Source of the DNA: Escherichia coli
Lineage (GTDB): Bacteria; Pseudomonadota; Gammaproteobacteria; Enterobacterales; Enterobacteriaceae
DNA: 64,000 nt
Assembly (NCBI RefSeq): GCF_024700885.2
Contig: NZ_CP117016.1
Strand: one strand, 5' to 3'
Shown here: one piece after another, positions 32,038 to 47,226 of the stretch
How the letters are laid out: each line of letters starts with the position of its first letter
How positions within the stretch are numbered: the first letter of the stretch is position 1
The notes under the pieces: generated by a model
Told to the model about the DNA's origin: nothing
Seen by the model: only the letters and a program-made list of their open reading frames with translations
Database searches by the model: none
Translations under genes and position numbers: made by a program

Positions 32038-32060
32038 TGACTACACCAGTGACTACACCG
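32038..32060 (+). repeat. 23-bp arm repeat TGACTACACCAGTGACTACACCG (left arm)
   Basis: A perfect copy lies at 47068..47090 in the same orientation. It is internally a tandem GACTACACC x2. Similarity continues for about 10 more bp (TCG[G/T]TGCAC). Confidence 0.85.
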
Positions 32061-32077
32061 TTCGGTGCACTGTATGA

Positions 32078-32102
32078 AACAACGTGGAACAAATAGACAC
32101 AA
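32078..32102 (+). repeat. 10-bp-phased (A/C)ACAA array, left arm (3 units)
   Basis: AACAA at 32078 and 32088, CACAA at 32098. Confidence 0.7.
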
Positions 32103-32415
32103 GAAATATACAGGCGGATCATCTTTCCAGGGGGAAGCACACCAATTCATGAGGGGCGTTAATGTCGATATGGGGATCCCCACCTACCGGAATTTTTTTC
32201 CGGTTAAACGTTAATCAGGCTGGTGGGCTTTACCTGTTCGGTAGGTGTTATGATTATCGTAATACCTTTCCCCCAATGGGGTAAAAGCATCAACCGTAAC
32301 GAAAGTCGTTATGGTTGCCACTGATACCCCAAATTTGGGTATCACGAGTAAGCCCCAAAATCTGGGTGTTACTCTTACTACCCAAACTACGGGTAGTTTC
32401 CGTAGTTTCATGGTC

Positions 32416-32435
32416 GAGTTGCAGATCTGCAACTC
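32416..32435. repeat. Perfect 20-bp palindrome GAGTTGCAGATCTGCAACTC
   Basis: Read directly from the sequence. It lies in a non-coding 0.7-kb island end, next to three CCCAAA..GGGT dyads (about 32324-32396) and a tandem GTAGTTTC x2. Confidence 0.8.
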
Positions 32436-32689
32436 CCCCATTAACCACAGGCGAATTTCCGCCTTCGGTCATTCCTTAATCATCTGCGTAATCATAATGA
32501 TTATTCAGCAAGCGCAATTTTGCGCTTTGCTTAAAGTTCAGCGAGTTACCGCGCCGACTTCCTCAAATTGAGGTTTCCGAAAATATCAGCGGGTTAGCGA
32601 TTAAGCTGACCATTAATTAAACTGCGAAAATGTCGTAGTTGTGAGGGGTGTAGCCAACCCATTTTTGGGCCGTCGGGAATATCAACCAG

Positions 32690-32971
32690 TTACCGCCGCA
32701 ACCGCTCCGGCTTCTTCCAGTGGTACGTTATTTTCTCCTTCTCCCGATACATCTCCACGCGGCGACGGTAGGCCAGCAACTCAAGAACTCTGGTTCGTAT
32801 GTTGCGCATATCCACGCCATTAAGTTCTATACCATCACGGCGCATCACCTCAGCAACAACACGCGCATAGTTTTCGGCTGTCACGCTGTCCGGCTGCGTG
32901 GCCTGTTCGTCAGCCTGCTGGCTGATTCCGGCAACGCGGCGGATTAATCCCGTTATTTCGGCTTCTGTCAT
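32690..32971 (-). CDS. Hypothetical protein (93 aa) downstream of terL
   Basis: ATG with SD gaggt. It lies 13 nt after the TerL stop. No family was recognised. Confidence 0.6.
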   Translation of the reverse strand: MTEAEITGLIRRVAGISQQADEQATQPDSVTAENYARVVAEVMRRDGIELNGVDMRNIRTRVLELLAYRRRVEMYREKEKITYHWKKPERLRR

Positions 32972-32984
32972 GCTGCTGACCTCA

Positions 32985-34646
32985 TTACACCCCGCTAAAT
33001 TCTTCCAGTTTCTGGCGGTGGCTGTCGCTTATATCAAAAGCAAAATCCTCATGCTCTGCCTGGAATGTACCAAACGCCATCAGCGCCGCCACGCTCGGGT
33101 CTATCTTGTTCGGTGATTTTTTCTTGTTCGGCTTGATATTGGCGTTCGCGTCACTCTGCATCACGACGTTACTCATCGACCAGGACAACACCGGATCGCC
33201 ACGATGCACAATCACCCTGCGGTTAACAAAAACTTCGAACGATTTCGCCGCCGGACTGAATCTGAGGTAGGTTTGCGGGAACGGCTCCACCTCAAAACCT
33301 GCCCCCTGTAATTGCGTTCTGAGATGCGTGGCGTTCCACGTATCAAAGCCCACCAGCCTGATATTAAATTTCTCCGCGTCCTGCATGATGTCATCTCTGA
33401 TCCGGTCGTAATCAATGCAGTCGCCAGGCGTTGTGCGTATCCAGCCTGCTTTAGCCCACTGACGATAGATGGCGCGGTTTTTATTGGCGGGGTTCTGTAG
33501 CTGAAATTCCGGCAGATAGTGACGGGAAACCAGCATAATGGTTTTACCGACCGGAAAGGCATAGCACACGCTGGAAATATCGCTGGTTGATGATAAGTCC
33601 AGCCCCGCGTAACACTCCTGGCCGTGTAAATCTTCCTCCGTGAACGTTCCGGCACACTCAGCCCATGCGCCGTTACCCATCCACGGGGTAGCCCCCTGGC
33701 ACCAGATATTAAATCGCTTTGTCATCATCTCCACCCACTGCGACGGAATACCCCGCGCTTTCTGGATGGTTGAGGCCAGTTTTTCACGATCGACGGAAAC
33801 ATCAATATTAGGGTTCGCCTTTATCCACATCGCCGGATCATCAACCTCGTTTTCGTCGTCCAGTTCGTAAATCAGTACAAAAATTGAATCGTTAACCTCT
33901 TCGCCGTCCAGGATCTGGCAGCAATAATCATAGTGCTGCTTACAGGCTGAAACGACGTTGCTGCCTGATGTGGTAATGGCAAATAACAGCCCTTCGGGAC
34001 GTGCGCCCATCCCCAGCTCAAGCGCGGAATAAACGCCGTTATCGGGGTGCAAGTGGTATTCGTCCACGATGGAAAGGCTGGGGTTTGTTCCCTCGATGGT
34101 TGCCGCTTTTGCTGCCAGCGGCTTTAACAGGCTGTTGCTTTTCGGGTGTATCACCTTATGCGCCTGAATATTCACCCGCCTGCGTAACGGTCGGGATAAA
34201 AGGCACATCTGACGCGCATCATCAAAGACGATCCGCGCCTGGTCACGGCTCACCGCTGCGGTGTAGATATCCTGCTGACCGTTCTCCATAATCAGAAACC
34301 AGTTAGCCAGAATCGCGGCGGTCGTGGATTTCGCATTTTTGCGCGGCACTTCGATAAAGGCGCTCGTGTATTTGCGCCGTCCGGTGGCCTTAACCTTAAA
34401 GCCGAGGATGCACGCAAAGGCGAACTGCTGCCACGGCTCCAGCTCAATGGGTCTGCCACGCATCGGTCCTTTTACGTGCGGGCACACCCTGGAAAAGGCA
34501 ATAAACCGCTCCACAACCTCACGATCGAACGTGTAAAGGGGGCTTTTAAGGTCCGAAAAGTACCGTTTAACGGCCTGTTTCAGCCGTTTACAGGCCGGAA
34601 TTTTGCCCGTTTTTACGTCTTCTGCGTACTTATTCCAGGCGGTCAA
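32985..34646 (-). CDS. terL: Terminase large subunit (Terminase_1-type)
   Basis: 553 aa with an ATPase region (VPRKNAKST Walker A-like, IVDEYH Walker B) and a C-terminal nuclease. The TTG start overlaps the terS 3' end and has SD gagga. Confidence 0.85.
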   Translation of the reverse strand: MTAWNKYAEDVKTGKIPACKRLKQAVKRYFSDLKSPLYTFDREVVERFIAFSRVCPHVKGPMRGRPIELEPWQQFAFACILGFKVKATGRRKYTSAFIEVPRKNAKSTTAAILANWFLIMENGQQDIYTAAVSRDQARIVFDDARQMCLLSRPLRRRVNIQAHKVIHPKSNSLLKPLAAKAATIEGTNPSLSIVDEYHLHPDNGVYSALELGMGARPEGLLFAITTSGSNVVSACKQHYDYCCQILDGEEVNDSIFVLIYELDDENEVDDPAMWIKANPNIDVSVDREKLASTIQKARGIPSQWVEMMTKRFNIWCQGATPWMGNGAWAECAGTFTEEDLHGQECYAGLDLSSTSDISSVCYAFPVGKTIMLVSRHYLPEFQLQNPANKNRAIYRQWAKAGWIRTTPGDCIDYDRIRDDIMQDAEKFNIRLVGFDTWNATHLRTQLQGAGFEVEPFPQTYLRFSPAAKSFEVFVNRRVIVHRGDPVLSWSMSNVVMQSDANANIKPNKKKSPNKIDPSVAALMAFGTFQAEHEDFAFDISDSHRQKLEEFSGV

Positions 34647-34986
34647 GCTCGTCCTCTTCTTCTGTTTCCGGTGGGTTTTTACGGCGGCTTATCGGGTCAA
34701 AACCGAGCAAGGAGGCCATTTTTATCATCACCCTTTCAGCGTCTGATTTCGCGCTTAATGCGGGGTTTCTGCTCTCGCCGCCCTGACTGTTAACAATGCT
34801 GAACCCGCGCGCCGCAAGGTCTGCGACGGCTTTCCGGTAAATGGAGTAGTTGACACAATACAGTTCCAGATTGCTCCAGTCGGCGGGGGTCAGGTCTCCC
34901 CGTTCCGCAAGCTGCCGCGATTTTTCCCGCCACTGCTTCACGGCGATGTCATCCAGGTAGGCGGGGGCTTTCGGTGGTCTTGCCAT
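34630..34986 (-). CDS. terS: Terminase small subunit, P27 family
   Basis: 118 aa; MARPPKAPAYLDDIAVKQWRE...LELYCVNYSIYRKA is typical of P27-family TerS. Confidence 0.8.
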   Translation of the reverse strand: MARPPKAPAYLDDIAVKQWREKSRQLAERGDLTPADWSNLELYCVNYSIYRKAVADLAARGFSIVNSQGGESRNPALSAKSDAERVMIKMASLLGFDPISRRKNPPETEEEDELDRLE

Positions 34987-35108
34987 GCTTATTTTTCGTC
35001 AGATTATTTTTCAAAAAATTCCCGTGCATAAAAATTTGAGGAGGCGTTCGGTGCCCGGCGGGGTCGGGTTTGTCCTGAAAACGCCCCCCACCCCGTCATA
35101 CAGCCTCA

Positions 35109-35282
35109 TCAGCGATTGCGGAAACATTCCATAACCTCGCGGTCACGGTCGGTTAATCGCTTCGCTGTGATGCGTTCTGCGCGTCCTGACGCTTTATCTT
35201 TATGCCCTGTTTCCTGTGTCTTCCATGCGTCACGCTGCCTTATAAGTCCACGGATAAGGCGGTTTTGTTCCCGCTCATTCAT
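35109..35282 (-). CDS. Small hypothetical protein (57-60 aa) between HNH and terS
   Basis: This is the C-terminal part of track ORF 35109..35513. The ATG at 35282 (or 35291) overlaps the HNH stop. The rest of that ORF is out of frame inside the HNH gene. Confidence 0.4.
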   Translation of the reverse strand: MNEREQNRLIRGLIRQRDAWKTQETGHKDKASGRAERITAKRLTDRDREVMECFRNR

Positions 35283-35715
35283 CAGCGTCATACATCCAGT
35301 TATTGCGGTTAGCGGCCCGTTCTTCCTCTTCACGAAATCCACCTGCGGCACGCTTGCTTTTTGTTGCCGGATCAAGCCATTTCGTTTTCTGGTTATGACA
35401 CGCCTGGCACAATGGTTGATGGTTCCATTCGGGCCAGAAGAGAACATCATCACCGCCATTAATCGGGATAATGTGATCCACCACCACGGCGGGCGTATAT
35501 ATCCCCTTCTCAAGGCATCGCACGCATAACGGGTTTTTACTCAGATACATGGCGCGGTATTTGTCCCACTGTCTGGAATATCCACGCGCGCGGCGGTGTC
35601 CTCGTCTGGCATCCTCTGCACGCCATGCCGCCCGCCTGTGCTCCTCACACTTGCCGGATTTAACGCGCCTGTTACAGCCTGGTTCTGTGCATCGTCTTAA
35701 TGGTTGCCACGGCAT
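35275..35715 (-). CDS. HNH endonuclease (packaging-associated)
   Basis: 146 aa with Cys pairs and DHIIP...N..LCQACHNQKT, an HNH motif. It sits beside terS as in HK97-like cos phages. Confidence 0.85.
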   Translation of the reverse strand: MPWQPLRRCTEPGCNRRVKSGKCEEHRRAAWRAEDARRGHRRARGYSRQWDKYRAMYLSKNPLCVRCLEKGIYTPAVVVDHIIPINGGDDVLFWPEWNHQPLCQACHNQKTKWLDPATKSKRAAGGFREEEERAANRNNWMYDADE

Positions 35716-36011
35716 CAGTACACCCCCACATCACGGTAAGCCGTCCAGAGTGCGCCTATCGTCATGGGTACGCGTGTTTTTGCGTTATCCGCGACAATCT
35801 GGCGATTTTCATACAGGTGAGCGATAAACATCATGCAGCCAATCTTTATGGCTGGCGTGAACTCCAGCCCGTCATCAAAGCGCCTGCCTATGTGTATCTG
35901 GCACGCCTCAAGCGATGCGGCAATGTATCCGCTGATTAACTGGTCTTCATCGTCGCCATCGATGCGGCAATGGAGTTTCACTTCTTCCAGGGTGATAAGT
36001 TCTTCTGTCAT
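35715..36011 (-). CDS. gp6-like head-tail connector protein
   Basis: 98 aa. MTEELITLEEVKLHCRIDGDDEDQLISGYIAAS is the typical Phage_connect_1 N-terminus. ATGA overlap with the upstream gene. Confidence 0.75.
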   Translation of the reverse strand: MTEELITLEEVKLHCRIDGDDEDQLISGYIAASLEACQIHIGRRFDDGLEFTPAIKIGCMMFIAHLYENRQIVADNAKTRVPMTIGALWTAYRDVGVY

Positions 36012-36346
36012 TTTTCCGCGCCCTCACGACAAAGAATTTCAAGGCGTGTCCTGGCGGCATCCGGCAGCGGCTGCCCGATGATATTCAGTACACGCCCCGC
36101 CAGCGGCCCCGTACTGACCTTTATCCGGCTGGTGGCGTTGATGTCCTTCCGGTACCGTATCCAGATCCTTACGGTACCAATCGCCAGCTCTGCGCCCGAT
36201 GAAATGGCCTCCTTGCTGCTGACCATGTTCACGCTTGCCCAGAGTGTGTGACCGTCCTCCCACGTTTCGAGTATTTCGCCGGTTATATCCCTGGTCTGTT
36301 TCAGGGTCTGAATCGTTATCCTGTCACGCAGTCGCCCTATGTTCAT
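36008..36346 (-). CDS. Head-closure / head-tail adaptor protein (SPP1 gp16-like)
   Basis: The start was set at MNIGRLRDRITIQ (ATG 36346, ATGA overlap with the portal stop), giving 112 aa. Confidence 0.7.
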   Translation of the reverse strand: MNIGRLRDRITIQTLKQTRDITGEILETWEDGHTLWASVNMVSSKEAISSGAELAIGTVRIWIRYRKDINATSRIKVSTGPLAGRVLNIIGQPLPDAARTRLEILCREGAEK

Positions 36347-37554
36347 TCCGGTTTTTCTCCCTCGCTGATTTTTACTTCCTGTTTCCATGCCTGGCTGAAC
36401 TCATCACCACCATCACGCGGTGACAGACCTTCACGTTCGCGGGCTTCGTTCGGACACATAACGCCGGATTTGATGCCGCGCTCATAGGTGGCAAAGCGTT
36501 CGCCAGGTGTGGCCCGTAACAGGTCCGCGCTGTCAAACTCCACCTGATACCGGATACCAGGTACAGGCGAGGCCACCAGCAGGGCGTTTTTTATCTGCTG
36601 CTCAAAGTTCGCCAGCCACGGGCGCATCGTCATGGTGAGAAATGCGCGGCTTGCCTCGCTGAAATTGCTGTAGGTGCTGTTGCTGTATTCCTGCAAAAAA
36701 ATCGGCGAGACGTTGAACATTCGGGCGATGTCTTCAATGGTGAAGCGACGGGAGGCCAGCCATTCAGCATCCTGATTACTCATGCCCAGCTGCTGATAGC
36801 TCATACCCCCTTCAAGGATGGGCGTTTTTCCGGCGTTTCTGGCCCCTTTGTAGCGTTCCAGTGCGGCTAATGCCTGTTTGCCCTTCACGCCGTCCAGCCA
36901 TTCGCCTGACGTGATAACCCCTGCCGCCATCATGCCATCACGCATCACGCTCGCGCCGTGGCGTTGTTGGGCCAGCCCAAGCCCCAGCGATTCGCGGCAG
37001 ATGGTTACAGGTGAGCACCCCATAAAGCCGTCATCCGTGGAGTAACGAAGGTGAAGTACTTCCCACGGTAAATAGTTGCGGGTGTTTCCGGTGTAGGCGT
37101 CAGTGATGCAGTAGCGCCAGTTGTGTTCGCCTGTCTGCTCCACGTTCACCGACTGCGGCGGGTAAGGATGTAAAGCCGCCGGAAAACCATCACGCCCCCA
37201 CTGAATCACCGCATAAGCATTACCGTTTAACAGGCAGTGGCGGATCATCATTCGCTTAAACTGGTAGGGGGTTTGCCATGCGTTCGGGCGCTCGTTGAGG
37301 ATGTGATCGACCGGATGAGAATCAAGCCACTCGCGGGCCTCCTTCCCCTTCTCATTGCGTACCAGGTACAGGTAACACGGCATGGTAGCCACCGCCTCAG
37401 AGATGACCGTCACGGCGTTCATGACGGCGGGCAGTGATTCCGCTGTCCCCGATGATACGTACTCACCCGCCCCCGTGTTCGATGTGCCAGCCAGCGCCAT
37501 AAATTCATCCAGCGTCATGCTGCGCTGCTCTTTTTTTCTTCTGAAAGGCCACAT
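36343..37554 (-). CDS. Portal protein, HK97 family
   Basis: 403 aa, recognised by family-typical sequence and position. SD gggggtg. Confidence 0.85.
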   Translation of the reverse strand: MWPFRRKKEQRSMTLDEFMALAGTSNTGAGEYVSSGTAESLPAVMNAVTVISEAVATMPCYLYLVRNEKGKEAREWLDSHPVDHILNERPNAWQTPYQFKRMMIRHCLLNGNAYAVIQWGRDGFPAALHPYPPQSVNVEQTGEHNWRYCITDAYTGNTRNYLPWEVLHLRYSTDDGFMGCSPVTICRESLGLGLAQQRHGASVMRDGMMAAGVITSGEWLDGVKGKQALAALERYKGARNAGKTPILEGGMSYQQLGMSNQDAEWLASRRFTIEDIARMFNVSPIFLQEYSNSTYSNFSEASRAFLTMTMRPWLANFEQQIKNALLVASPVPGIRYQVEFDSADLLRATPGERFATYERGIKSGVMCPNEAREREGLSPRDGGDEFSQAWKQEVKISEGEKPE

Positions 37555-37555
37555 A

Positions 37556-38128
37556 TCACACCCCCGCTAAATCCACCCACCAGCGGCGATTATCCGCACG
37601 CGGCATTTTTTCGGGGTGCTGCTCATACAGGGAACGGCGGGCCAGCTCCACGCCGGAATCGGGGTAAGCCGGTACCGATGTAACGGTAATTTCGTACAGT
37701 TCCGCCACCAGCACGGTGCGCACGCATGGATCTGTTGTGGTATCCCATACATCCTTACGGGAGCGAAAGCCAAAGCTCATCCCCGAGATGTCCCCACGCT
37801 TAACCAGTTCGATAACGTCGCGCCCTGTACTGGTATCCGGTGGGGTCAGTTCAAAGCGTAACCCTGTTTCGTCCTCTTCCAGTTTCAGCGTGCCGGAACG
37901 GGTGCGCCCCAGTAACATGCTGTGGTCATGCTCATACAGGCCGCGAACGTCATTACCCGCCGCAAGCCACTCAGTAAACGCCCCCCGCTGGAATTTTTCG
38001 TAAAACTCCCCCCATAGCAGTTCTGAAAGCTTATCCCAGCGAACAACGTAGCCCGTCAGCGTACCGGCTCCGCTGGTAGTGATTTCCGATGACCGGATTT
38101 CCATACTCTTCATAATTTTTTCACCCAT
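37556..38128 (-). CDS. Prohead serine protease, HK97 (S78) family
   Basis: 190 aa (start may be 38113). EHD...LLGR and GMSFGF motifs are present. Confidence 0.85.
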   Translation of the reverse strand: MGEKIMKSMEIRSSEITTSGAGTLTGYVVRWDKLSELLWGEFYEKFQRGAFTEWLAAGNDVRGLYEHDHSMLLGRTRSGTLKLEEDETGLRFELTPPDTSTGRDVIELVKRGDISGMSFGFRSRKDVWDTTTDPCVRTVLVAELYEITVTSVPAYPDSGVELARRSLYEQHPEKMPRADNRRWWVDLAGV

Positions 38129-38137
38129 AAAACACTA

Positions 38138-38157
38138 AAGGGGCTTTTAAGCCCCTT
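38138..38157 (-). terminator. Hairpin between capsid and protease genes (possible attenuator)
   Basis: Stem aaggggctt/aagcccctt, followed on the minus strand by ttagtgtttt. Confidence 0.4.
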
Positions 38158-38167
38158 CTGTATGCTG

Positions 38168-39325
38168 TTAATCGTCGTCCTGTGGCAGTTCCAGAATCTT
38201 GATCGCGTTCGAATCCACCACGCCACCGCCTAAATATTTCTGCGTGAAAATTTTGATGAAGCCCGGCTCTGTGAGGTTGTCCGGTCTGGTGCGAACACCT
38301 GTTTCGTGATCAACAATGTAGTAACCGCGTTTGAAGTCACCCAGGGCAATAACGTTATCCGGCATAAACTCCAGATATTCGACCGGAAGGCCCAGTAACG
38401 TATCAGGATCACCCGCCTGTAAACGGTCGCGCCAGATGTAATCACCGTTCGCGTTCTTCACCTTCTGAAGTTTTGCCGCCGTCGTGGAGTTAACCACCCA
38501 GACCGCGTTTTTGCGGTATTTTTTACGTAATGCAAATTTCAGGTCGATCAGCGGGTCCGCAGATGTCCACGCCAGAGATTCGGAAGGTTTAATTACCTGC
38601 AACGTACCAAAATCACGCTCTTTGTCGTTCTTCTCTGCACGGGGTACGGATAAAAAGCCTTTTGCTTTTTTGTCACCGTCGCCCACAACCAGATCGCTTT
38701 CTTCGGTTTCCGTGAAGTTGTCGCCAATCTCGCCCGTCAGCCATGAAAGGATGTCCACATCGGAAAAATCCACGATTTCCTGCGTGGTGCGCGGGTACGC
38801 ATAGACCGGATACAGCTTAATGCTCACCTCGTTAATCTGCGGGGTGCTGGTCTGTTCGCGTGCCTTACCCTCTTCACCGTGGTTAACGGTCGCACCGCCA
38901 GCGGAAACAAGCTGCTTAAACTCGTTGCTGCTGATTTTCTTCACGGTACAGATGCGGCGCATGGTGGATTCATCCGTCAGCATTCGCATGATTTCGGTGT
39001 TCAGTTCGGGGATAACGGTATAACCACCATCAGCGGGAACGCCTGTACTTAATGCGCGGGTTTCACCTGTCAGAATGTAGTGACGTAGTTCGGCTGGGTC
39101 AGTGGTCTGACTGCTTTTACCTGGCTTGCTGCGCTCTTCGTCTGCAATGGCTTCAAGGCGGGAAATGTCTTTATCGAGGGATTCAGCTTTAGCGCGTAAT
39201 TCGTCAAATTTTGCGCCCTCAGCATCGTTAAGACTGCGGTTTTCTTTTTCCGCGTTCTCCAGCATGTCGCGCATCTGATTTTTAATGGCGGTTTTCTGCT
39301 GGCGTAATTCGATTATTCTCGGCAT
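38168..39325 (-). CDS. Major capsid protein, HK97 fold, with N-terminal delta/scaffold-like coiled coil
   Basis: 385 aa with a charged helical N-terminus (about 100 aa) followed by an HK97-family capsid body. Confidence 0.88.
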   Translation of the reverse strand: MPRIIELRQQKTAIKNQMRDMLENAEKENRSLNDAEGAKFDELRAKAESLDKDISRLEAIADEERSKPGKSSQTTDPAELRHYILTGETRALSTGVPADGGYTVIPELNTEIMRMLTDESTMRRICTVKKISSNEFKQLVSAGGATVNHGEEGKAREQTSTPQINEVSIKLYPVYAYPRTTQEIVDFSDVDILSWLTGEIGDNFTETEESDLVVGDGDKKAKGFLSVPRAEKNDKERDFGTLQVIKPSESLAWTSADPLIDLKFALRKKYRKNAVWVVNSTTAAKLQKVKNANGDYIWRDRLQAGDPDTLLGLPVEYLEFMPDNVIALGDFKRGYYIVDHETGVRTRPDNLTEPGFIKIFTQKYLGGGVVDSNAIKILELPQDDD

Positions 39326-39539
39326 AAAAAAAGTCCTGGGGTTAAGTAAGGAACTCCAGGACGCGGCAAAAACTCAACCGTTTTTCATAAGGAAATCAGC
39401 AATCGCACCGATCGTTTTCCCGCCTGGTAATGAATATTGGCGAGAACATTAACAGGCGGAAAAGTGGCCCCAGCGTCCTGGCACCACGGGCGAGAATAAT
39501 CATGATTCAGTTCGGGTAAAATATGCCGATCCGCTCAGT

Positions 39540-39565
39540 GAACAACGTGGAACAACCACGAACAA
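39540..39565 (+). repeat. Three GAACAA units at exact 10-bp spacing upstream of the capsid operon
   Basis: GAACAA at 39540, 39550 and 39560. Confidence 0.8.
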
Positions 39566-39583
39566 ATAATTTACAAAACATGA

Positions 39584-39606
39584 CAAAAAGCCGGATTGCT
39601 CCGGCT
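39584..39606 (-). terminator. Rho-independent terminator ending the early/replication operon
   Basis: The minus strand reads agccggagcaatccggct + ttttgt, immediately after the stop at 39613. Confidence 0.7.
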
Positions 39607-39612
39607 GTGTGA

Positions 39613-39894
39613 TTATCTGTCCTGGTAATTTCGCCATATTTCATTACCAGCACCATCCATACCCATTTCGGCATAAGTGCGATCGACCGCCTTTTTCAGG
39701 TCTCCGTAGTTATCCGGCGGCTCCGGTGGCCTCTGTGCCTTCCTGGAACATTCCAGCCGTCGCATCGTGATGTGATGCCGTTCCTTGTCTGTCTCCACCA
39801 GTTGCATGACTTCACCCCATCGCGCCGACGCTCTCCGGTAAAAGCCTTTCGCCTCCAGTTCTTCCGCTATGCGGTCATGTACCATCGTCCCCAC
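39613..39894 (-). CDS. PerC-like transcriptional activator (candidate)
   Basis: 93 aa. IAEELEAKGFYRRASARWGEVM matches the (L/F)(W/Y)RRAxxRWxEV motif I recall for the PerC/Pch family. Not verified by search. Confidence 0.5.
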   Translation of the reverse strand: MGTMVHDRIAEELEAKGFYRRASARWGEVMQLVETDKERHHITMRRLECSRKAQRPPEPPDNYGDLKKAVDRTYAEMGMDGAGNEIWRNYQDR

Positions 39895-39897
39895 CCC

Positions 39898-40308
39898 TCA
39901 GAACGGAATATCATCACCGTAAGGGTCATCGCCTCCCGCTGGTGGCTGATTACCCTGTGTGCCTGTGGTCTTGCGTCGGCTCCCACCAGGACGTGCCGCA
40001 CGGGCACTGATTACGCTGTCTGCAATAACCTGATAACCCTGCCGCGTTTCCCCGTTCTGTCCGGTCCACTGGCTGACCTGCATCGTGCCGGATACGCTGG
40101 CAACGTCGCCTTTTTGATGTTTAGCCAGGAAGTCGGCCTGCTTACCAAATGCGATGACCGATAGCCATAACGTCGCCTGTCCATCCTGTGCCTGGCTGCA
40201 TGGCAGCGATACCGCCATACGCGCCAGCGTCATCGGTGTACCCTTGCTGGTCTGTTTTACCTGCGGGTCGTCCACCAGCCGCCCGTAAGCTGCTATCTGT
40301 GCTGTCAT
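39898..40308 (-). CDS. ssb: Single-stranded DNA-binding protein
   Basis: 136 aa with an OB-fold N-terminus, a Gly/Pro-rich linker and the acidic tip DDIPF. Confidence 0.88.
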   Translation of the reverse strand: MTAQIAAYGRLVDDPQVKQTSKGTPMTLARMAVSLPCSQAQDGQATLWLSVIAFGKQADFLAKHQKGDVASVSGTMQVSQWTGQNGETRQGYQVIADSVISARAARPGGSRRKTTGTQGNQPPAGGDDPYGDDIPF

Positions 40309-40583
40309 GATTCCACCTCTCCGGTTTTAACGTTGATGGTTGTTACCTGTTCCGCTTCGGCAATCTCCCGCTCTGTCAGCGTGGCAAAATTTGCCGCCGT
40401 CGTGGTCATGAATGCGCTTATCAGTTTGGGATGTGCTTTCGCGTATCCTTCCCCCGCGTGGCGGTCTATCGTTCTGATTGCCACCTTTAAAGCGTGCTCT
40501 GTCATGTCTAACGCGCGATATTTCGGTTCTGTTCTGTCTCTGCGTTTTTTGAGTGATTTATTAAATTTCCCTGAAGTGTGCAT
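40305..40583 (-). CDS. Hypothetical protein (92 aa)
   Basis: ATG at 40583. Its stop overlaps the ssb start (ATGA). Confidence 0.5.
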   Translation of the reverse strand: MHTSGKFNKSLKKRRDRTEPKYRALDMTEHALKVAIRTIDRHAGEGYAKAHPKLISAFMTTTAANFATLTEREIAEAEQVTTINVKTGEVES

Positions 40584-40632
40584 ATTTATTTTTACCCCCT
40601 CGTTTAAAAAGTTTTGAGTTGTGCCTCCCCTT

Positions 40633-40855
40633 GTCTACCTTATCTACCTTAGTGGCCCTCATACCAGTAATGGCGCGGCTTTCAGCGGGGTAGAGTGCTT
40701 TTATCCACTATCTACCCCGTGTCTACCTCCCTGTCTGATTCAGGTAAAATCAGGTAGAGAGGGTAGATAGTGGGTAGACAGTAAAAAAAGGTTATCTACC
40801 TAACTTAATGCACTGAATTAAATGTATTTTTCTTTACTCAGGTAGACAGGGTAGA
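40633..40855. repeat. Iteron cluster / candidate island replication origin
   Basis: 11 copies of the hexamer GGTAGA/TCTACC. TCTACC starts at 40634, 40644, 40711, 40722 and 40795. GGTAGA starts at 40689, 40753, 40762, 40773, 40841 and 40850. They flank an AT-rich stretch (40801-40840) directly downstream of the primase stop. Confidence 0.75.
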
Positions 40856-40871
40856 CAGCAATTACAAAAAA

Positions 40872-42626
40872 TTATAAAAACGCGTCGCACTCGTCTGTTG
40901 TTATTGCGTTAGTCTGCGTTACTCCCTTAACTTTCCGCGTAATATATTCATGTCCGTAAACTTTCGCGGCTGGCTTCATAGCCTTGCCAAAGTCATTTAC
41001 GTTTAGCGGTTTGCTCCTGCCTGCGTACGCCATAAACGCCAGATAGACGCGGTAAAGGCTGTTTCTGGTCGTGTACTTCACTGAATCGCCACCGCCGCCC
41101 ATCATCAGGCCGCGTGCTTCCTCCAGAAAATTCAGGAACTGGCAAAACTCAATAACCGGATCCGTCTGTTGCTTTATTGCCAGAGCTTCATCACCGTCAC
41201 GCTGTTCCAGTAGTAAAGCCCGTGCCTTCTCAGGGTCGGTAAAGTTCGCCAGCAATCGGCGGATAATGACAGGGATTTCAGCCGCGATCTTTTCCGGTAG
41301 CTCCCTGTCTTTTTCGGCCTCACTGACGATATTGTCGAAACGGAAAATCACGCGACGACGTGCCACACCTCCGGCCCGTTCGGTGAATATCATCGGGTTA
41401 TTGTTGGTCGCCAGCACCACCGCCCTGATTACCGCCGTGAAACGCTTTTCGTATTTCGGGTTAATTTCCACGGGGTCACCGCCCGTGATTTTCTTGATGC
41501 CCGTTCCTTCGCCTGTATATTTCGGCTGGTCAGCCAGGACGATAAGACGACTCCCGACAACCTGCGCACGTCCACCAGCATCATCAAGCGATGTCATTTC
41601 AGCGCTTACCGTGTTCTGTTTCCCTGCCAGAAGGCTGGCTATGTGTGTGAATGTACTTTTACCGCTCCCGCCGTCTCCGGTGGCCTCAATAAACATCTGC
41701 CAGTCGTACCGGTTCGCCATAATCATGTACAGCGCGGCACATATACGCATCATCTTGCGCGGGTCTTTTCCGGCTGCGTGCTCAAGCCATTTATGAAAGT
41801 TTGGCGCGTTATCGCGGATGTTCTCCCCTGGTGCTGGTGGCGTGTACTCAATGCCGTTGTGCGTGGTGATCCAGTTCTCCGGCGTGTGCGGGGAAAATTC
41901 CCCCGTTTTCAGGTCAAGCGCACCATTGGCGAACGGCAACAAATCGCCGGACGGCTCGCCCATTGGTTCGGCAATAACTTTTAACGCTTCCACGGCGTTA
42001 TTGATTACGCGCTTGCTGAAAGTGGCCCTGTGCTCTGAATAGATCGCCACCATTTCGCGGCTAAGTTCCATTGTGCTGACCGGACACCATACCCCGCCGC
42101 GCCATACGTGAACGATTTCACTTTCAGGATGTACGCAAACGCCATCAAAGCGATCGGCAAGCAGTTGCGCGCGCTCACTGTCCGCCATCTGCGAAAGTTG
42201 CGCCTTTTGCTTTACCGGAAGCTCAATGACCAGACCATCAGAAAGATTCTGGCGCTCACGGGCCAGATATTCGCGCCAGTTCTCCACCTTCTGACCGTGC
42301 ATACCATCAGGGTAAAAATTTGCATCCTGTACGCCTGCCGCCGCCAGCTTCTGACCAATCGCCTTTATCATTACTGGCGCAAGATATCCGGCCCTGAATA
42401 TGCGCACGGATTTTCTGCCTTCCGGCACAATTTGCAGCTTATCCAGTTCGGATAACTGCTGCTCCCCAAGCCACACAGGAGGCTCATTATCTCCGGCCAT
42501 ACGCGCGTCATGTTCCTGCCATTGTTTTGCGTGTGACCAGGCATCACTACCCGCAAAAATAATGACTTCTGTTTCTTTGTGTTTTATGCCGCGTGACTGC
42601 TGTTTTACGTTCGGTGCCAGTTTCAT
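40872..42626 (-). CDS. P4-family primase/helicase (pri-rep)
   Basis: 584 aa with Walker A GDGGSGKST and Walker B LIVLADQP. The C-terminal architecture is D5/P4-alpha-like. Confidence 0.82.
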   Translation of the reverse strand: MKLAPNVKQQSRGIKHKETEVIIFAGSDAWSHAKQWQEHDARMAGDNEPPVWLGEQQLSELDKLQIVPEGRKSVRIFRAGYLAPVMIKAIGQKLAAAGVQDANFYPDGMHGQKVENWREYLARERQNLSDGLVIELPVKQKAQLSQMADSERAQLLADRFDGVCVHPESEIVHVWRGGVWCPVSTMELSREMVAIYSEHRATFSKRVINNAVEALKVIAEPMGEPSGDLLPFANGALDLKTGEFSPHTPENWITTHNGIEYTPPAPGENIRDNAPNFHKWLEHAAGKDPRKMMRICAALYMIMANRYDWQMFIEATGDGGSGKSTFTHIASLLAGKQNTVSAEMTSLDDAGGRAQVVGSRLIVLADQPKYTGEGTGIKKITGGDPVEINPKYEKRFTAVIRAVVLATNNNPMIFTERAGGVARRRVIFRFDNIVSEAEKDRELPEKIAAEIPVIIRRLLANFTDPEKARALLLEQRDGDEALAIKQQTDPVIEFCQFLNFLEEARGLMMGGGGDSVKYTTRNSLYRVYLAFMAYAGRSKPLNVNDFGKAMKPAAKVYGHEYITRKVKGVTQTNAITTDECDAFL

Positions 42627-42922
42627 TTTTTACCCCTGAATCCGTTAATCATGGTTTTCAGCTTCTGGATGTTTGCCCGTGCCCTGGCGTTGCTGGTGGA
42701 CACGTTATGCGGCGCGGTCTGTACCAGAGAAAAATCACGCCGGAACTGATAAACAGGCATCACGCAATCATATTCGTAACCTTCACGGCGGTAGGTTACG
42801 CGCCGTTCTTCCACGCCCTTAATCATTACCGTGCCGCCGTACTGGTCGCGGTAAATATCGCCGCGCGTAAATTTAGGGTGAGTGTTGCCACTGGCAGTTA
42901 AGCCAGAATATTTAAGTTTCAT
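42623..42922 (-). CDS. Hypothetical protein (99 aa)
   Basis: SD ggaga. ATGA overlap with the primase start. Confidence 0.55.
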   Translation of the reverse strand: MKLKYSGLTASGNTHPKFTRGDIYRDQYGGTVMIKGVEERRVTYRREGYEYDCVMPVYQFRRDFSLVQTAPHNVSTSNARARANIQKLKTMINGFRGKK

Positions 42923-42927
42923 TATTT

Positions 42928-43161
42928 TTATTCTCCGGTGTGCTGTTCTTTATATCTGTCGTGCAATAGATCTATTTCTTGCAGTTCCATTATTACAGGC
43001 TCAAGAAGCGTTATTAATGCCGTGGCAATTCTTGATTTTTGTTTGTCGCGTTCATTGTCGCCAAGTGTTTCAAGCCATATGCGCAATATTTCCAGCATGT
43101 TTTCACTGTGAGAAAGTGCAAGAAATGCGCGGTCTATTGTTTCGTGGTAAATATCACGCAT
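42928..43161 (-). CDS. Hypothetical protein (77 aa)
   Basis: ATG with SD gagga. Part of the packed operon. Confidence 0.5.
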   Translation of the reverse strand: MRDIYHETIDRAFLALSHSENMLEILRIWLETLGDNERDKQKSRIATALITLLEPVIMELQEIDLLHDRYKEQHTGE

Positions 43162-43387
43162 GGCTTACATCCTCAGGAAATTTTCTTCTATAACGCGCCT
43201 CTGCCACATATTCCGCATAATCGGCGGCGATATTCAGTACATCAAGCCCCGTTGATTTATATTCTCTCGTGGAAAGTAAGAAAAAAGCCGCTCTAATAAG
43301 TTCTGGCATTGACGAAAGCGCATCAGCCGCATCATCAGGAACGCCGGAAAATTCCTGTTTCAGGGAATTAAAACGATCATCACGCAT
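43154..43387 (-). CDS. Hypothetical protein (77 aa)
   Basis: ATG with SD gggggg. It has 8-nt overlaps with both neighbouring genes. Confidence 0.5.
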   Translation of the reverse strand: MRDDRFNSLKQEFSGVPDDAADALSSMPELIRAAFFLLSTREYKSTGLDVLNIAADYAEYVAEARYRRKFPEDVSHA

Positions 43388-43745
43388 GTTTACCCCCCTG
43401 AATGACCTGATAACCGCAACTGGTCAGCAACTCGATAAATTCCGGCAGTGTGCCGAAACAGCAATCATCACGCAGCCGTTCACAGGATACCTCGACGCCG
43501 TTTTCGTAGTGACTCACCATACATCCGGTAAAATGCAGATCATCATCGTGATGGCTCGTTGACGGCTTAATCAGTCGCGCACGTTCCGCCAGTTCCAGCA
43601 ATGCTTCAACGCTTCCGGCAATTGCACCATCCGGCAGGTGATAATTACGCACTATGCGCCCGTTCTCCACATTGACCAGCAACTGCCCGGTAAATTTCTC
43701 ATCAAACTGAATGCTGTTAAGGTCAGAAATTGACAGATTATGCAT
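43380..43745 (-). CDS. Hypothetical protein (121 aa)
   Basis: The start was moved to MHNLSISDL (ATG 43745), preceded by a strong SD aggagg. Confidence 0.55.
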   Translation of the reverse strand: MHNLSISDLNSIQFDEKFTGQLLVNVENGRIVRNYHLPDGAIAGSVEALLELAERARLIKPSTSHHDDDLHFTGCMVSHYENGVEVSCERLRDDCCFGTLPEFIELLTSCGYQVIQGGKHA

Positions 43746-43962
43746 GGTGCACCTCCTGCACATCAGCCATGATAATTTTTCCGGCCTTATCCAGTGCCTG
43801 ATCGGCTTTTAGCTGCACAAATGCTAAATAATGGAAGATGCATTCTGATTCTCTGGCTGCGTGTTTATGCGCCCTGTCAGCAATAACAGAAATATCAATA
43901 AGCGCGTGCATCAGCGTAGTGAGCGCGGCGGCGGCTGCGTCCGGTGTGGTTTTATTGCACAT
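43738..43962 (-). CDS. Hypothetical protein (74 aa)
   Basis: The start was moved to MCNKTTPD (ATG 43962), preceded by SD ggagggg. Confidence 0.5.
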   Translation of the reverse strand: MCNKTTPDAAAAALTTLMHALIDISVIADRAHKHAARESECIFHYLAFVQLKADQALDKAGKIIMADVQEVHHA

Positions 43963-44182
43963 GTACCCCTCCGCATTTTTTTTCGTTAGAAATAAGCGTT
44001 CTTCTTTCCTGTTCATCGCTCAGGAATACGCAGACCTCACCGCTAAGGCGTTTAAGTAAGCCGATGATTGCCCCTGATTCGCTGTCGGTCATCATGCCAG
44101 GGTAATCCTCTGCCAGTGCGCAAATAACTTCGATTTGGTGGGCGCGTTCTGCTGCCTGTTGTAGTGTGATTTCCTGGCTCAT
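43952..44182 (-). CDS. Hypothetical protein (76 aa)
   Basis: ATGA overlap with the icd-like stop. Confidence 0.5.
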   Translation of the reverse strand: MSQEITLQQAAERAHQIEVICALAEDYPGMMTDSESGAIIGLLKRLSGEVCVFLSDEQERRTLISNEKKCGGVHVQ

Positions 44183-44379
44183 AAGCCTACCCCCTGACGA
44201 ATACGGGCAGCAAATACCATCACGCAGCCAGCCGGAGATTGCTGGCGTGCTTCCTGTTCGCTGGTGGCCTCAATGGTAATCACGCGCGGTTGTGCCGTGC
44301 TCAGGGCGATAAAACGCCAGATGTATTTATTCAGGTTGTGCGAGTCCCGCCCTTGCGGGTGTGTGGTATGATTTCTCAT
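44179..44379 (-). CDS. Icd-like host cell-division inhibitor (66 aa)
   Basis: This is the C-terminal 66 codons of the 340-aa track ORF. ATG at 44379 with SD gaggt. YIWRFIAL...ATSEQEARQ...VFAARIR resembles Icd-like proteins of P4-type elements, from memory. Confidence 0.55.
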   Translation of the reverse strand: MRNHTTHPQGRDSHNLNKYIWRFIALSTAQPRVITIEATSEQEARQQSPAGCVMVFAARIRQGVGL

Positions 44380-44475
44380 AGCTACCTCGATACTTTCGCT
44401 ATCGTTGGTGGTTAGAAGCCCGGTTAGTGTTAGCGCACTGCCGGGTTTCGTCGTTTCTGCACCTTGCGCCAACAA

Positions 44476-44529
44476 GGTGTTGAACACCAATTTAAACCCA
44501 GGTGTTAAACACGTCAAGTGTTGAACACT
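44476..44529. promoter_or_regulatory. Three operator-like 13-bp dyads (GTGTT-N-AACAC) in a divergent promoter region
   Basis: GGTGTTGAACACC 44476-88, GGTGTTAAACACG 44501-13, AGTGTTGAACACT 44517-29. A putative rightward promoter, TTGAAC(44521)-17 nt-CATACT(44544), overlaps the third dyad. Confidence 0.65.
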
Positions 44530-44578
44530 TATTTTTTTTCCTGCATACTGCATTTGTTTTTTATGAGGGGTACACCAC

Positions 44579-44758
44579 ATGGCGACAAAAGCGGTAAACG
44601 CAAAATCACAAACCGTTGCGGCAAGGGTTCCGCATGAAGTTATGAACAATGTTGAGGCGGTAAAAATGCCTGGCGAAAGTACGGGGCAATTTGTTACTGC
44701 GGCATTAAAACGAGAAGTTGAATATCGCCAGCGGCGCAAGGCCAAAGAACCAGAGTAA
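44579..44758 (+). CDS. Ribbon-helix-helix (Arc/CopG-like) DNA-binding protein, 59 aa, candidate island repressor
   Basis: Hand-translated as MATKAVNAKSQTVAARVPHEVMNNVEAVKMPGESTGQFVTAALKREVEYRQRRKAKEPE*. SD gagggg. It has a beta-strand-helix-helix pattern. It is below the ORF-track cutoff and is one of only two plus-strand genes in the island. Confidence 0.5.
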   Translation: MATKAVNAKSQTVAARVPHEVMNNVEAVKMPGESTGQFVTAALKREVEYRQRRKAKEPE

Positions 44759-44800
44759 TCACCATCAGCGCCGTGGTGTAAGGTATTACGGCGCATTGCT

Positions 44801-44989
44801 ATGCAGGACAACACAATGACCGATAAAGAATTGACCAAAACATTATCACCGGCACGGAAAAGACGGCGCAGAAAGATAGAGCATGAATCAGAAAGATTCG
44901 CGCCATGTGCTTTTGCCCTTGAGCAATTCCTTAAAGAGTACAGGGAAAAGCGCTCATTGCAGGTATGGCAACGAACTGAACCAGACTGA
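44801..44989 (+). CDS. Hypothetical basic protein (57-62 aa)
   Basis: Downstream of the RHH gene and before the plus-strand terminator. Contains an ARKRRRRK stretch. The start may be 44816. Confidence 0.4.
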   Translation: MQDNTMTDKELTKTLSPARKRRRRKIEHESERFAPCAFALEQFLKEYREKRSLQVWQRTEPD

Positions 44990-45084
44990 TTGCATTGCCC
45001 ACCAGCCTGATAACGGCTATCATCCCCGTGCTTATGTTTGGGATCACACACACAAACGGCGCAGCGGGTTATCTGTTCAGAAAG

Positions 45085-45112
45085 GCGGCTCCATTTCGGG
45101 GCCGCTTTTTTT
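45085..45112 (+). terminator. Rho-independent terminator of the rightward RHH unit
   Basis: Stem gcggctcc/ggggccgc (8 bp, one G-U pair) followed by 7 T. Confidence 0.7.
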
Positions 45113-45258
45113 ATACCTGAAAAACCCCAATTTTGTTGTTTTTCAGTTTCACCAGGGCGAACGAATCCCCGCCCACGTTCTGGCGTATATTCAATCTTCA
45201 TGGTTATAGCTCTGTGTTCAGATGATTGATGTGTGGCGGCTGCGTGCCGCCAGCGTGA

Positions 45259-45447
45259 TTAATGAACTGCCTTGCAGCTATCCTTCCAGGCCAGAACCTC
45301 GGATAAAGACCAGCCAACGGAACGACCGCCAAGTTTACGACGTGATGGGAATTGTCCGGCCTTTTCCAGGCGGTAGCGACACGTACGGCTAAGGCCGGTT
45401 AGTTTTTCGCATTCTTTTTCACGTATAAACCGATCAGTGCTTAACAC
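45259..45447 (-). CDS. alpA: AlpA-family regulator / excisionase-type HTH
   Basis: FIREKECEKLTGLSRTCRYRLEKAGQFPSRRKLGGRSVGWSLSEVLAW is the typical AlpA/Phage_AlpA motif. The favoured start is the GTG at 45447, 5 nt after SD aagggggg. The track ORF extends to a TTG at 45528. Confidence 0.8.
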   Translation of the reverse strand: MLSTDRFIREKECEKLTGLSRTCRYRLEKAGQFPSRRKLGGRSVGWSLSEVLAWKDSCKAVH

Positions 45448-45720
45448 TATTGCCCCCCTTTCGTTTCTTAAAGAGTCATCAGGTGTCTTATTGTGTCGTA
45501 TTGTTCCCGCTAGAGTGATGAATGGCAAATACTGAGGATGTATGATTTACAGAAAATGAAACAGTAAGAATAAAATTTTTTAAATTCATGTTAATACAAA
45601 GGCATAAAATATTGTTCCATGCCTTTTTTCTCGCTCTTTAAAGAGTGATTCGCTAGTGTACAAAAAACCAGTAACGCATTAAAAATCAGCTACTTATAAA
45701 TCCGTACGCTTTTTCGCCTC

Positions 45721-45765
45721 TTGTTCGTAGTTGTTCCACATTGTTGCTCATTGTTGCACGTTGTA
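45721..45765 (-). repeat. Five TTGTT/TTGTA units at exact 10-bp spacing (inverse orientation of the GAACAA arrays), int-alpA intergenic
   Basis: Units start at 45721, 45731, 45741, 45751 and 45761. Confidence 0.8.
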
Positions 45766-45812
45766 TCTGTTCGCATATCCAGTATGCGCATACTGAAAAA
45801 ACACGAAAAAAA

Positions 45813-47042
45813 TTATTTTCTTCTGGCTACGGGTAGCGTGGTTACGTTTTCATGTGTTCCCGCCAGTATCCCTAACCGCTCCGTCCACATATCCAGCGCA
45901 TTGCGTTTCGCATCCAGATAACGGGAATGATTATAAACTCGCTGCATTCCTGGCATCTGGTGGCCTGTAAGCTGCTCCACGACATGCGGATCAACGCCTA
46001 AATCGTTCAGCATGGTTGTAAAGGTGCGCCGGATGTCATGCAGTGACCAGTGAGGGTGATTAAGCCTCCTGTACGCTAATCTTCCATACTGCGATACGCT
46101 GGCCTCCTGTTTCACTTCCCCCAGCAATAAGCCCGTGTGCCTGTTCTGCTCCACCAGCTGCGTGACGAACGGCAGGATCGCTTCCGGTATGGGCCGGAAT
46201 ATTGCGACCTTCGTTTTGCTGTGCTCCTTCGGAACGGTCCATAGCATTTCCGTAAAATCCCACTCCCCGATCTCCGATAACCTCAGTTCTACCGTTCTGG
46301 CTCCGAAGACAATCAGGAGGCGGATTAACGCGACGTAGTAAGGGGAGAATATTTTTTTGTCCAGTGCCTGCAATAATTCGCCAAGTTCTTTGTTACTTAA
46401 GACACGTTCGCTTATATCCGGTTTTTTCCCAACGTCCGCAACGTTCAGATCGTCCAGAACGTTGCTGATTGCATAGCGCCGCCTACGGCAGAACTTAAGC
46501 GCCTGTTTGCACGCCTGTAGCACGAATCCGGCAGTAACAGGCGTTCGCTTTGCCACCTGGTCAAAACAGGCCAGCCAGTGCCGTAGCTCGCATTTATCCA
46601 GCGGCATAGCACCAATCTGCTGTATTACGTGATTATTAAGTCGCCTTTTCAGGGCGATATAATCCACGCGGTTTTCCTTTACGTAATACTCAAGCCAGTA
46701 GGTGAGCGCATCGCCAACCGTTACGGGCTTTAACGCTTCCTGTACGGTGTAATTCATCTCATGACGTGGATTTTTCCCCTCAGCCAGCCATGTGCGACAC
46801 TGTGCGGCTTTTTCCCTGGCTGCTTTCAGGCTCAGATCAGGATAACTTCCCAGCTTAATGCGTTCGGGTCGTGTCTCCCTTCCCGTTCCGGCCCTGTATG
46901 TGAAATACCAGGTCAATTTCCCTGATGTTAAATATTTCACGCTCAGGTTTCCGCCATCACTATAAAACGTGTTTTTCTCCGCTGGCTTACCATGAAGTTT
47001 CCTTAGCAAGGTATCGCTCAGTTTGTTCATTGCTCTGCTCAC
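45813..47042 (-). CDS. int: P4-type tyrosine integrase (DUF4102 arm-binding N-terminus + catalytic core)
   Basis: 409 aa, with either a GTG at 47042 or an ATG at 47030 (MNKLSDTLLRKL). The N-terminus is GKLTWYFTYR...LGSYPDLSLKAAR. Catalytic motifs HDIRRT and Y in VYNHSRY are present. Confidence 0.9.
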   Translation of the reverse strand: MSRAMNKLSDTLLRKLHGKPAEKNTFYSDGGNLSVKYLTSGKLTWYFTYRAGTGRETRPERIKLGSYPDLSLKAAREKAAQCRTWLAEGKNPRHEMNYTVQEALKPVTVGDALTYWLEYYVKENRVDYIALKRRLNNHVIQQIGAMPLDKCELRHWLACFDQVAKRTPVTAGFVLQACKQALKFCRRRRYAISNVLDDLNVADVGKKPDISERVLSNKELGELLQALDKKIFSPYYVALIRLLIVFGARTVELRLSEIGEWDFTEMLWTVPKEHSKTKVAIFRPIPEAILPFVTQLVEQNRHTGLLLGEVKQEASVSQYGRLAYRRLNHPHWSLHDIRRTFTTMLNDLGVDPHVVEQLTGHQMPGMQRVYNHSRYLDAKRNALDMWTERLGILAGTHENVTTLPVARRK

Positions 47043-47067
47043 GTTTTACCCCCTCTTTACGAAAAAG

Positions 47068-47090
47068 TGACTACACCAGTGACTACACCG
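47068..47090 (+). repeat. 23-bp arm repeat TGACTACACCAGTGACTACACCG (right arm)
   Basis: Perfect copy of 32038..32060, in the same orientation. Confidence 0.85.
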
Positions 47091-47108
47091 ATCGTTGCAC
47101 AAAGGGCT

Positions 47109-47132
47109 ACAACGTGAAACAAGCTGGAACAA
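47109..47132 (+). repeat. 10-bp-phased ACAA array, right arm (3 units, a 4th at +12)
   Basis: ACAA at 47109, 47119 and 47129, and another at 47141. Confidence 0.7.
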
Positions 47133-47217
47133 GGAAAATCACAAATCTATTGATAATCAAAAACATAATGCACAGCCTGAAACATTATGAAACAGCAAAA
47201 AACACTAAATGATAAAA

Positions 47218-47226
47218 TGCTGTTAT
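47218..47226. repeat. att core copy (integrase-proximal junction; I call it attR by window position)
   Basis: TGCTGTTAT, identical to 31955..31963. Confidence 0.85.

Follow-up and report, generated by a model that had tools for sequence, protein, structure and literature searches.

An eleven-copy iteron array behind the replicase gene as the probable replication origin of a capsid-forming PICI in Escherichia coli

What is the role of a dense cluster of short repeats that fills the gap behind the replicase gene of a chromosomal island in Escherichia coli? The cluster lies at 40634-40855, with copies on both strands, in the stretch of 64,000 nucleotides analysed here (contig NZ_CP117016.1 of assembly GCF_024700885.2; "the window" throughout). 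A first-pass annotation, made from the letters alone, had proposed an iteron-type origin with the rep-then-ori organisation of Staphylococcus aureus pathogenicity islands (SaPIs) as well as of phage-inducible chromosomal islands (PICIs). We assign a probability of about 90% to the reading that the array serves a capsid-forming PICI, 15.3 kb long and sitting in tqsA of E. coli, as its origin of vegetative replication. This reading is founded on near-identity to an experimentally tested allele, that of the island EcCICFT073, on the selective conservation of the repeat cores, and on the co-variation of the repeats with the helicase and origin-binding-domain (OBD) module of the replicase. Its value for annotation is that it marks the cis-acting site that would let a capsid-forming island amplify after induction.

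The iteron array and its published counterpart

An exact scan of both strands returned eleven copies of the hexamer GGTAGA or its complement TCTACC within 40634-40855, and this recount agrees with the eleven copies in 223 bp, split six to five, that had been claimed. The six GGTAGA cores on the plus strand start at 40689, 40753, 40762, 40773, 40841 and 40850, and the five TCTACC cores at 40634, 40643, 40711, 40722 and 40795. The window as a whole holds 34 copies on both strands, compared with 13.3 ± 3.9 in dinucleotide-preserving shuffles. The 23 copies outside the cluster, spread over the remaining 63.8 kb, give an expectation of 0.08 per 223 bp (Poisson P ~2e-20), and within 223 bp anywhere in the window, no other hexamer exceeds six copies. 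This enrichment and the hexamer-span comparison rule out a chance or low-complexity repeat. The iteron consensus is R-GGTAGA-Y-A, with A at position 8 in ten of the eleven copies. The base 5' of the core is A in six copies, G in five and T in none; the flanks first described, G/T-GGTAGA-C/G, are to be replaced accordingly.

The arrangement of the cores is highly regular. Around the point 40744.5 (between 40744 and 40745), ten of them pair off as five exact mirror images; the copy at 40753 alone has no exact partner, and the spacings run 9, 46, 22, 11, 31, 9, 11, 22, 46 and 9. From the hexamer map and an alignment of the window origin with those of six E. coli relatives whose replicase is of the same type (seven origins in all), the array is resolved into six groups of sites. 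At the end away from the replicase gene stands a minus-strand doublet of TGTCTACC and TATCTACC with 9-bp spacing (40632-40648), which is kept in all seven aligned origins. It is followed by a single plus-strand iteron (40689-40694), the mirror partner of the 40795 copy and invariant in the seven sequences, then by a minus-strand doublet with 11-bp spacing (40709-40727), a plus-strand triplet with spacings of 9 and 11 bp (40753-40780), and a single minus-strand iteron (40793-40800) at the edge of an AT-rich spacer. Beyond this spacer, the replicase-proximal doublet on the plus strand repeats GGTAGACA twice with 9-bp spacing (40841-40857).

The AT-rich spacer (40801-40840) is a candidate DNA-unwinding element on the grounds of base composition and 30-mer stability. 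It is 78% A+T, compared with 42% for its mirror-image spacer at 40649-40688. The three 30-mers of lowest stability in the segment 40500-40950 lie at 40780-40881, away from the dyad centre, and two of them overlap the AT-rich spacer. The 40-bp AT-rich segment named in the first-pass annotation is thus real; the claim that the iterons are arranged around it does not hold in the sense of a centred array, as nine iterons lie on one side and two on the other, the replicase side. The array fills a 288-bp gap between the stop of the replicase open reading frame (ORF) and the next minus-strand ORF, at 40305-40583. Its last iteron ends at 40855 and the replicase ORF of 584 residues, stop included, at 40872, which gives the 17-bp distance first reported.

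The closest counterpart of this region is in EcCICFT073 (AE014075/NC_004431, 1377749-1389210). The 584-residue "DNA primase family protein" of that island is identical to the window replicase at 581 of 584 positions, and its intergenic region (our locus L008, 6248-6535) matches the 288 bp of the window at 272 positions. All eleven cores are found at the same positions and in the same orientations, and none of the 16 differences touches a core. With 94% identity in DNA and 99% in protein to the EcCICFT073 origin, the proposed SaPI/PICI-type organisation is borne out. As in the window, the EcCICFT073 origin lies 3' of the replicase and ahead of the hyp-ssb-perC genes. The two replicons differ in their hosts: EcCICFT073, at ycfD-phoQ, belongs to the classical cos-type PICIs, whereas the window replicon resides in a capsid-forming PICI inserted in tqsA.

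The EcCICFT073 replicon has been tested by cloning. Fillol-Salom et al. (2018, ISME J, PMC6092414) placed pri-ori, pri-Δori and Δpri-ori in the temperature-sensitive vector pKO3-blue. As given in the text and legend of that paper, no colonies formed at 44 °C once pri was deleted, and deletion of ori gave significantly fewer colonies. Mapping of the published primers places the end of the pri-Δori insert 4 nt past the stop codon, and shows that the pri-ori insert reaches about 20 nt into the following gene. The published "ori" therefore corresponds to the whole intergenic region, 40584-40871 on the minus strand in the window. This correspondence is drawn from the text, legend and primer sequences of the paper. 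The printed reverse primer of pri-ori is one C short relative to the genome, which is probably a transcription slip. Cloning of the region together with the replicase, proposed as a check in the first-pass annotation, has in effect been carried out on the near-identical EcCICFT073 allele, by this published description (PMC6092414). The window array is an EcCICFT073-type PICI origin and hence of a known type, its architecture and function having been published in 2018; the origin itself adds no new biology. The preprints on capsid-forming PICIs are silent on the origin.

Conservation of the cores and exchange of the replication module

In the alignment of seven origins, conservation is concentrated in the cores. 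In the two close relatives, core identity is 100%. In the two intermediate relatives the cores are 98.5% identical and the non-core positions 65%, and in the two most distant relatives the values are 81% and 58%. For the four diverged relatives pooled, identity is 0.90 in the cores versus 0.68 in the rest of the region, a value that none of 5000 random sets of eleven hexamers reached. The iteron cores are, as judged from this alignment, under purifying selection. The A+T content of the spacer on the replicase side is 69-85% in all seven origins and that of the mirror spacer 40-53%, while the C-terminal 99 residues of the replicase are 82-99% identical among these seven GGTAGA-keeping relatives. 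Two further blocks are conserved outside the iterons. One, CAGTAATGGCGCGGCTTTCA (40665-40684), sits in the GC-rich spacer with 18 of its 20 columns invariant in the seven origins. The other, GTTTAAAAAGTTTT (40602-40615), is an invariant 14-bp block immediately ahead of the next gene's ribosome-binding site, and could either act as a signal for expression or belong to the origin. Both blocks are absent from the origins of other replicase types.

The replicase (40872-42626, minus strand) is of the EcCICFT073 Pri-Rep type, as defined by its matches to Pfam, EcCICFT073, P4 alpha and the structure 7OLA. By homology, it is built from a TOPRIM-like N-terminal domain, D5_N, a superfamily 3 (SF3) helicase and a C-terminal OBD. 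Pfam returned D5_N, DUF5906 and Pox_D5. The protein is 40% identical to residues 324-762 of P4 alpha (E=7e-113), and its helicase core matches PriRep5 of SaPI5 (7OLA, E=3.8e-15). For the last 92 residues, the match is to PDB 1KA8, the C-terminal domain of P4 alpha (E=7e-7), which we take to be a winged-helix OBD; this domain (residues 488-579, 40890-41165, minus strand) is the putative reader of the iterons. The N-terminal domain (residues 1-163, 42137-42626, minus strand) is common to PICI replicases of unrelated helicase classes, and the searches of Pfam and NCBIfam found nothing significant in it. In our reading, this TOPRIM-like domain seems to lack the usual acidic TOPRIM residues, and for this reason its role may be that of an adaptor (to host primase or to a regulator, for instance) and not of a primase. 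Of the original label "primase/helicase", the second half stands, as an SF3 helicase by homology; the first half is putative.

Comparison with other islands provides the third line of evidence. Many E. coli islands share the downstream 92-residue ORF and ssb, with DNA homology that ends exactly at the origin, and in those compared, different iterons occupy the same site. EcCIEDL933 (locus L007, 4258-4627) and locus L009 combine a DUF927/Cch-like replicase with eleven copies of TGCGGGTTA. A DUF927 replicase in locus L011 (3749-4104) goes with twelve copies of TGGGACRAC, and a RepA-type helicase in L010 (3753-3954) with eight copies of GTGGGGA, all in one orientation. In E. coli IMT16316 (L012, 3752-4038), an alpha-type replicase of 619 residues, 43% identical to that of the window, is followed by ten copies of GGTGAACA at no more than one mismatch. 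The iteron changes with the helicase and OBD module. The replicase N terminus (residues 1-125 to 1-163), by comparison, stays 66-82% identical across all the replicase classes compared, and the flanking genes, for the 92-residue protein (hyp92) and ssb, remain homologous across the swaps. Because the N terminus is constant across classes, the exchanged unit would consist of the helicase core, the C-terminal domain and the iterons, at about 40560-42137 in the window, with its edge at the N-terminal domain. Such co-variation is the pattern expected of a cognate initiator-origin pair and supports Rep-specific recognition. Autonomous, Rep-specific replication, as first proposed, is made probable by the published EcCICFT073 clone of pri with the region, as that paper's text and legend describe it (PMC6092414), together with the core conservation, the co-variation and the 1KA8 homology.

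The same comparison bears on the alternative that the repeats are mainly operators, governing read-through or transcription into ssb, perC and the packaging genes. The position of the array would suit such a role, as it lies within a co-directional string of genes, between pri and the next gene, and the invariant block GTTTAAAAAGTTTT stands just ahead of the next ribosome-binding site. In addition, GGTAGACA includes the -35-like TAGACA. Promoter and terminator scans of the region gave one weak promoter-like match and no terminator, a yield no better than in shuffled sequences. Furthermore, the iteron follows the helicase-OBD module and not hyp92, ssb or the constant N terminus of the replicase, and a replication phenotype for deletion of the region has been published, in the account given in the text and legend of PMC6092414. 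A mainly regulatory function is thus highly improbable in our estimation. The repeats may have a secondary regulatory role besides serving as the replication origin.

Taken together, the cassette appears to be exchangeable and grafted behind a constant TOPRIM-like domain of about 130-160 residues that is common to three unrelated helicase classes, as far as sequence comparison can tell. The exact mirror layout and the 20-bp conserved block suggest a head-to-head double hexamer plus a site for an extra factor; by analogy, the assembly would resemble those at the papillomavirus E1 and SV40 T-antigen origins. The combination of a swappable cassette behind a constant N-domain, a specificity-switch pair with P4 (see below) and a double hexamer with an extra factor site is a tentative proposal, which we regard as rather doubtful in its entirety. 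The details of the cassette, of the two-base relation to P4 and of the mirror layout may not have been described before. These side observations, on the N-domain, the cassette edges, the P4 relation, the mirror layout and the extra block, are leads and not results; they could aid studies of how satellite replicons diversify and escape cross-talk.

A model for initiation and its relation to known origins

How the array would act can be outlined from the homologies. After induction, the replicase would bind the R-GGTAGA-Y-A iterons through its C-terminal domain, the homologue of the P4 alpha OBD. The mirror-symmetric sites would assemble SF3-type helicase rings on both sides, the duplex would open, most likely at the spacer 40801-40840, and the helicase would then drive replication of the excised circle. 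In this outline, we infer the iteron-reading domain, the stoichiometry, the melting site and the source of the primer.

SaPIs provide a functional precedent. Their Reps are self-loading SF3 helicases that read iterons of 5-6 nt through a C-terminal winged helix, and that bind and melt their own origins without ATP (PMC9371898). The origins lie directly downstream of rep and present 6-12 short iterons in opposite orientations flanking an AT-rich region (PMC9371898). The window origin resembles those of SaPIbov1, SaPI1 and SaPI5 in three traits: it is immediately 3' of the initiator gene, its short opposed iterons stand on both sides of an AT-rich region (at least two on each side, split nine versus two), and its initiator would be an SF3 helicase whose DNA-binding domain is C-terminal. 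The specificity of this helicase for its own iterons is predicted from the co-variation in five replicase-iteron pairs. The differences from SaPIs are the iteron sequence, the host, the off-centre position of the AT-rich spacer and the unidirectional gene order, which is that of Gram-negative PICIs. In comparison with SaPI5, the N terminus is a short TOPRIM-like module and not the primase of PriRep5.

Several points weigh against the origin assignment. The functional evidence belongs to the EcCICFT073 allele, from which the window differs at 16 of 288 bases. The ori deletion in that island "significantly reduced" colonies and is not reported, in the text and legend of the paper, as abolishing them (PMC6092414), and the region, while important, may not be the sole entry point. 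The off-centre placement of the AT-rich spacer relative to the dyad leaves the melting site uncertain. The replicase shows no recognisable active primase domain, which leaves the priming step unexplained. Finally, the binding of the replicase to the iterons is something that we infer from sequence.

The partial effect of the ori deletion is also what gives room to a second interpretation, in which the array is a cis-acting replication enhancer like crr of P4, bound by the replicase while initiation takes place elsewhere. In the annotated P4 record, crr is found 46 bp after the alpha stop, and its ten type-1 repeats point both ways; some 4.5 kb separate it from the true ori, which lies across the alpha gene. 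The window array shares with crr this position just past the stop and its short two-way repeats, and the 40% identity of the replicase to residues 324-762 of alpha adds to the likeness. In the hexamer scan of the window, in contrast, no further GGTAGA cluster turned up, either elsewhere in the island or within the pri gene. Moreover, a clone with only pri and the region sufficed for maintenance, by the description in the text and legend of PMC6092414, and the region carries its own spacer, AT-rich in all relatives. Since the cluster is single and the published clone minimal, a role restricted to that of crr is unlikely; we judge it an improbable account of the array, and prefer the origin assignment.

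The P4 relation extends to the repeats themselves. The P4 type-1 repeat is TGTTCACC; GGTAGACA differs from the type-1 form GGTGAACA at two of eight positions. At no more than one mismatch, the window origin contains no GGTGAACA and the L012 origin no window repeat. The L012 origin uses this P4 repeat, and the layout of its ten sites (53-, 97+, 118-, 129-, 139-, 173+, 192+, 213-, 256+ and 266+) nearly superimposes on that of the eleven window cores (51-, 60-, 106+, 128-, 139-, 170+, 179+, 190+, 212-, 258+ and 267+). The iterons GGTAGACA and GGTGAACA, read by homologous C-terminal domains, may thus constitute a natural specificity-switch pair. In other respects the window departs from P4. In its replicase, nothing resembles the first ~320 residues of alpha, presumably the primase domain of that protein, and there is one iteron cluster in place of ori plus crr, with no 120-bp direct repeats. 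The primase-helicase-OBD protein, the type-1 repeats and the two cis elements of alpha-dependent ori/crr replication do not describe the window origin and its replicase.

Iterons of theta plasmids are typically 17-22 bp long, tandem and in one orientation; they are served by non-helicase Rep proteins and accompanied by DnaA boxes. The window origin shares with the origins of P1, F, R6K, pSC101 and RK2 the repeated initiator sites by an AT-rich stretch and the adjacent initiator gene. It differs in that its sites are of 6-8 bp, mirror-symmetric and in both orientations, and in that the initiator would itself be a helicase. No one-way tandem repeats of 17-22 bp are present in the array, and a scan of the origin region for host-factor motifs returned neither a full DnaA box nor any IHF, Fis or GATC site.

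Two minor signals were noted within the array. Between iterons, TTATCCAC (40701-40708) is an 8/9 match to a DnaA box. It is present in the three closest origins only, and for that reason is probably fortuitous. A structured RNA was considered and rejected: Rfam gave only sub-threshold microRNA matches (22-24 bits versus gathering scores of 59-90), all on the palindromic centre, and these are an artefact of the dyad symmetry.

The host island

The island spans 31955-47226 of the window and is inserted in tqsA of the E. coli chromosome. It is bounded by direct repeats of ATAACAGCA: one end (att) lies at 31955-31963 in the split tqsA and the other at 47218-47226, where the annotation places it next to int. 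The identical att core is listed for EcCI042 and EcCIK1516, two PICIs also inserted in tqsA. All genes are on the minus strand. The first part comprises int, a helix-turn-helix (AlpA-type) regulator, an icd-like gene, small ORFs, a DUF4222 gene and the replicase; after the iteron array come the 92-residue ORF, ssb and perC. The 92-residue product has no significant match in Pfam or NCBIfam. The packaging part encodes a major capsid protein, prohead protease, portal, head closure protein, head-tail connector, HNH, TerS and TerL. Its capsid-to-terminase genes occupy 32985-39325, with no tail genes by Pfam and RefSeq annotation.

The integrase, the AlpA-type regulator, the att site, the size class (about 10-15 kb) and the lack of tail and lysis genes are those of a PICI. 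The capsid, protease, portal, head-completion, HNH, TerS and TerL genes, again with no tail genes, identify the island by its gene content as a capsid-forming PICI. Its major capsid protein is identical at 382 of 385 positions to that of EcCIEDL933, the prototype capsid-forming PICI (bioRxiv 10.1101/2025.02.11.637232). The replicase of EcCIEDL933 is of the DUF927 type, unlike that of the window island. Sequence comparison identifies the island as a mosaic, in which an EcCICFT073-type rep-ori module is joined to EcCIEDL933-type packaging genes.

A further alternative is that the repeats are a packaging (cos/pac) site recognised by the TerS-TerL-HNH machinery. A terminase is encoded by the island itself, and repeats can be plentiful at such sites. 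The same array with the same map, nonetheless, is found in EcCICFT073, which relies on lambda-type cos packaging and has no terminase genes. EcCICFT073-type arrays occur in islands with four different packaging modules, lambda-type cos, ClpP-capsid fusions and a terS type among them. Conversely, EcCIEDL933, with a capsid that is 99% identical, has entirely different repeats at this position. The packaging-site reading is already contradicted by these comparisons, and we give it next to no credence; the assignment as replication origin accommodates them.

The DUF4222 gene (42623-42922, minus strand) overlaps the start of the replicase gene by 4 nt and is kept upstream of every replicase class examined; its product may be a replication accessory.

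The 451-bp segment 40500-40950 is held to at least 80% of its length by 489 of 5426 complete genomes. The phage collection gave no match to the origin, and the plasmid collection gave three, none of which indicates use by a plasmid. The sole match at 100% in the plasmid collection is CP088587.1 (L014), a circular "plasmid" of 32,560 bp named pD17EC0246-3, which is a chromosomal segment. It holds the same island together with chromosomal flanks of ~9.4 kb and 8 kb (clcB, mlc, mdtIJ ... pntAB, ydgH). The circular plasmid probably arose as an artefact of assembly; such a contig could also result from over-replication in situ, started at the island origin.
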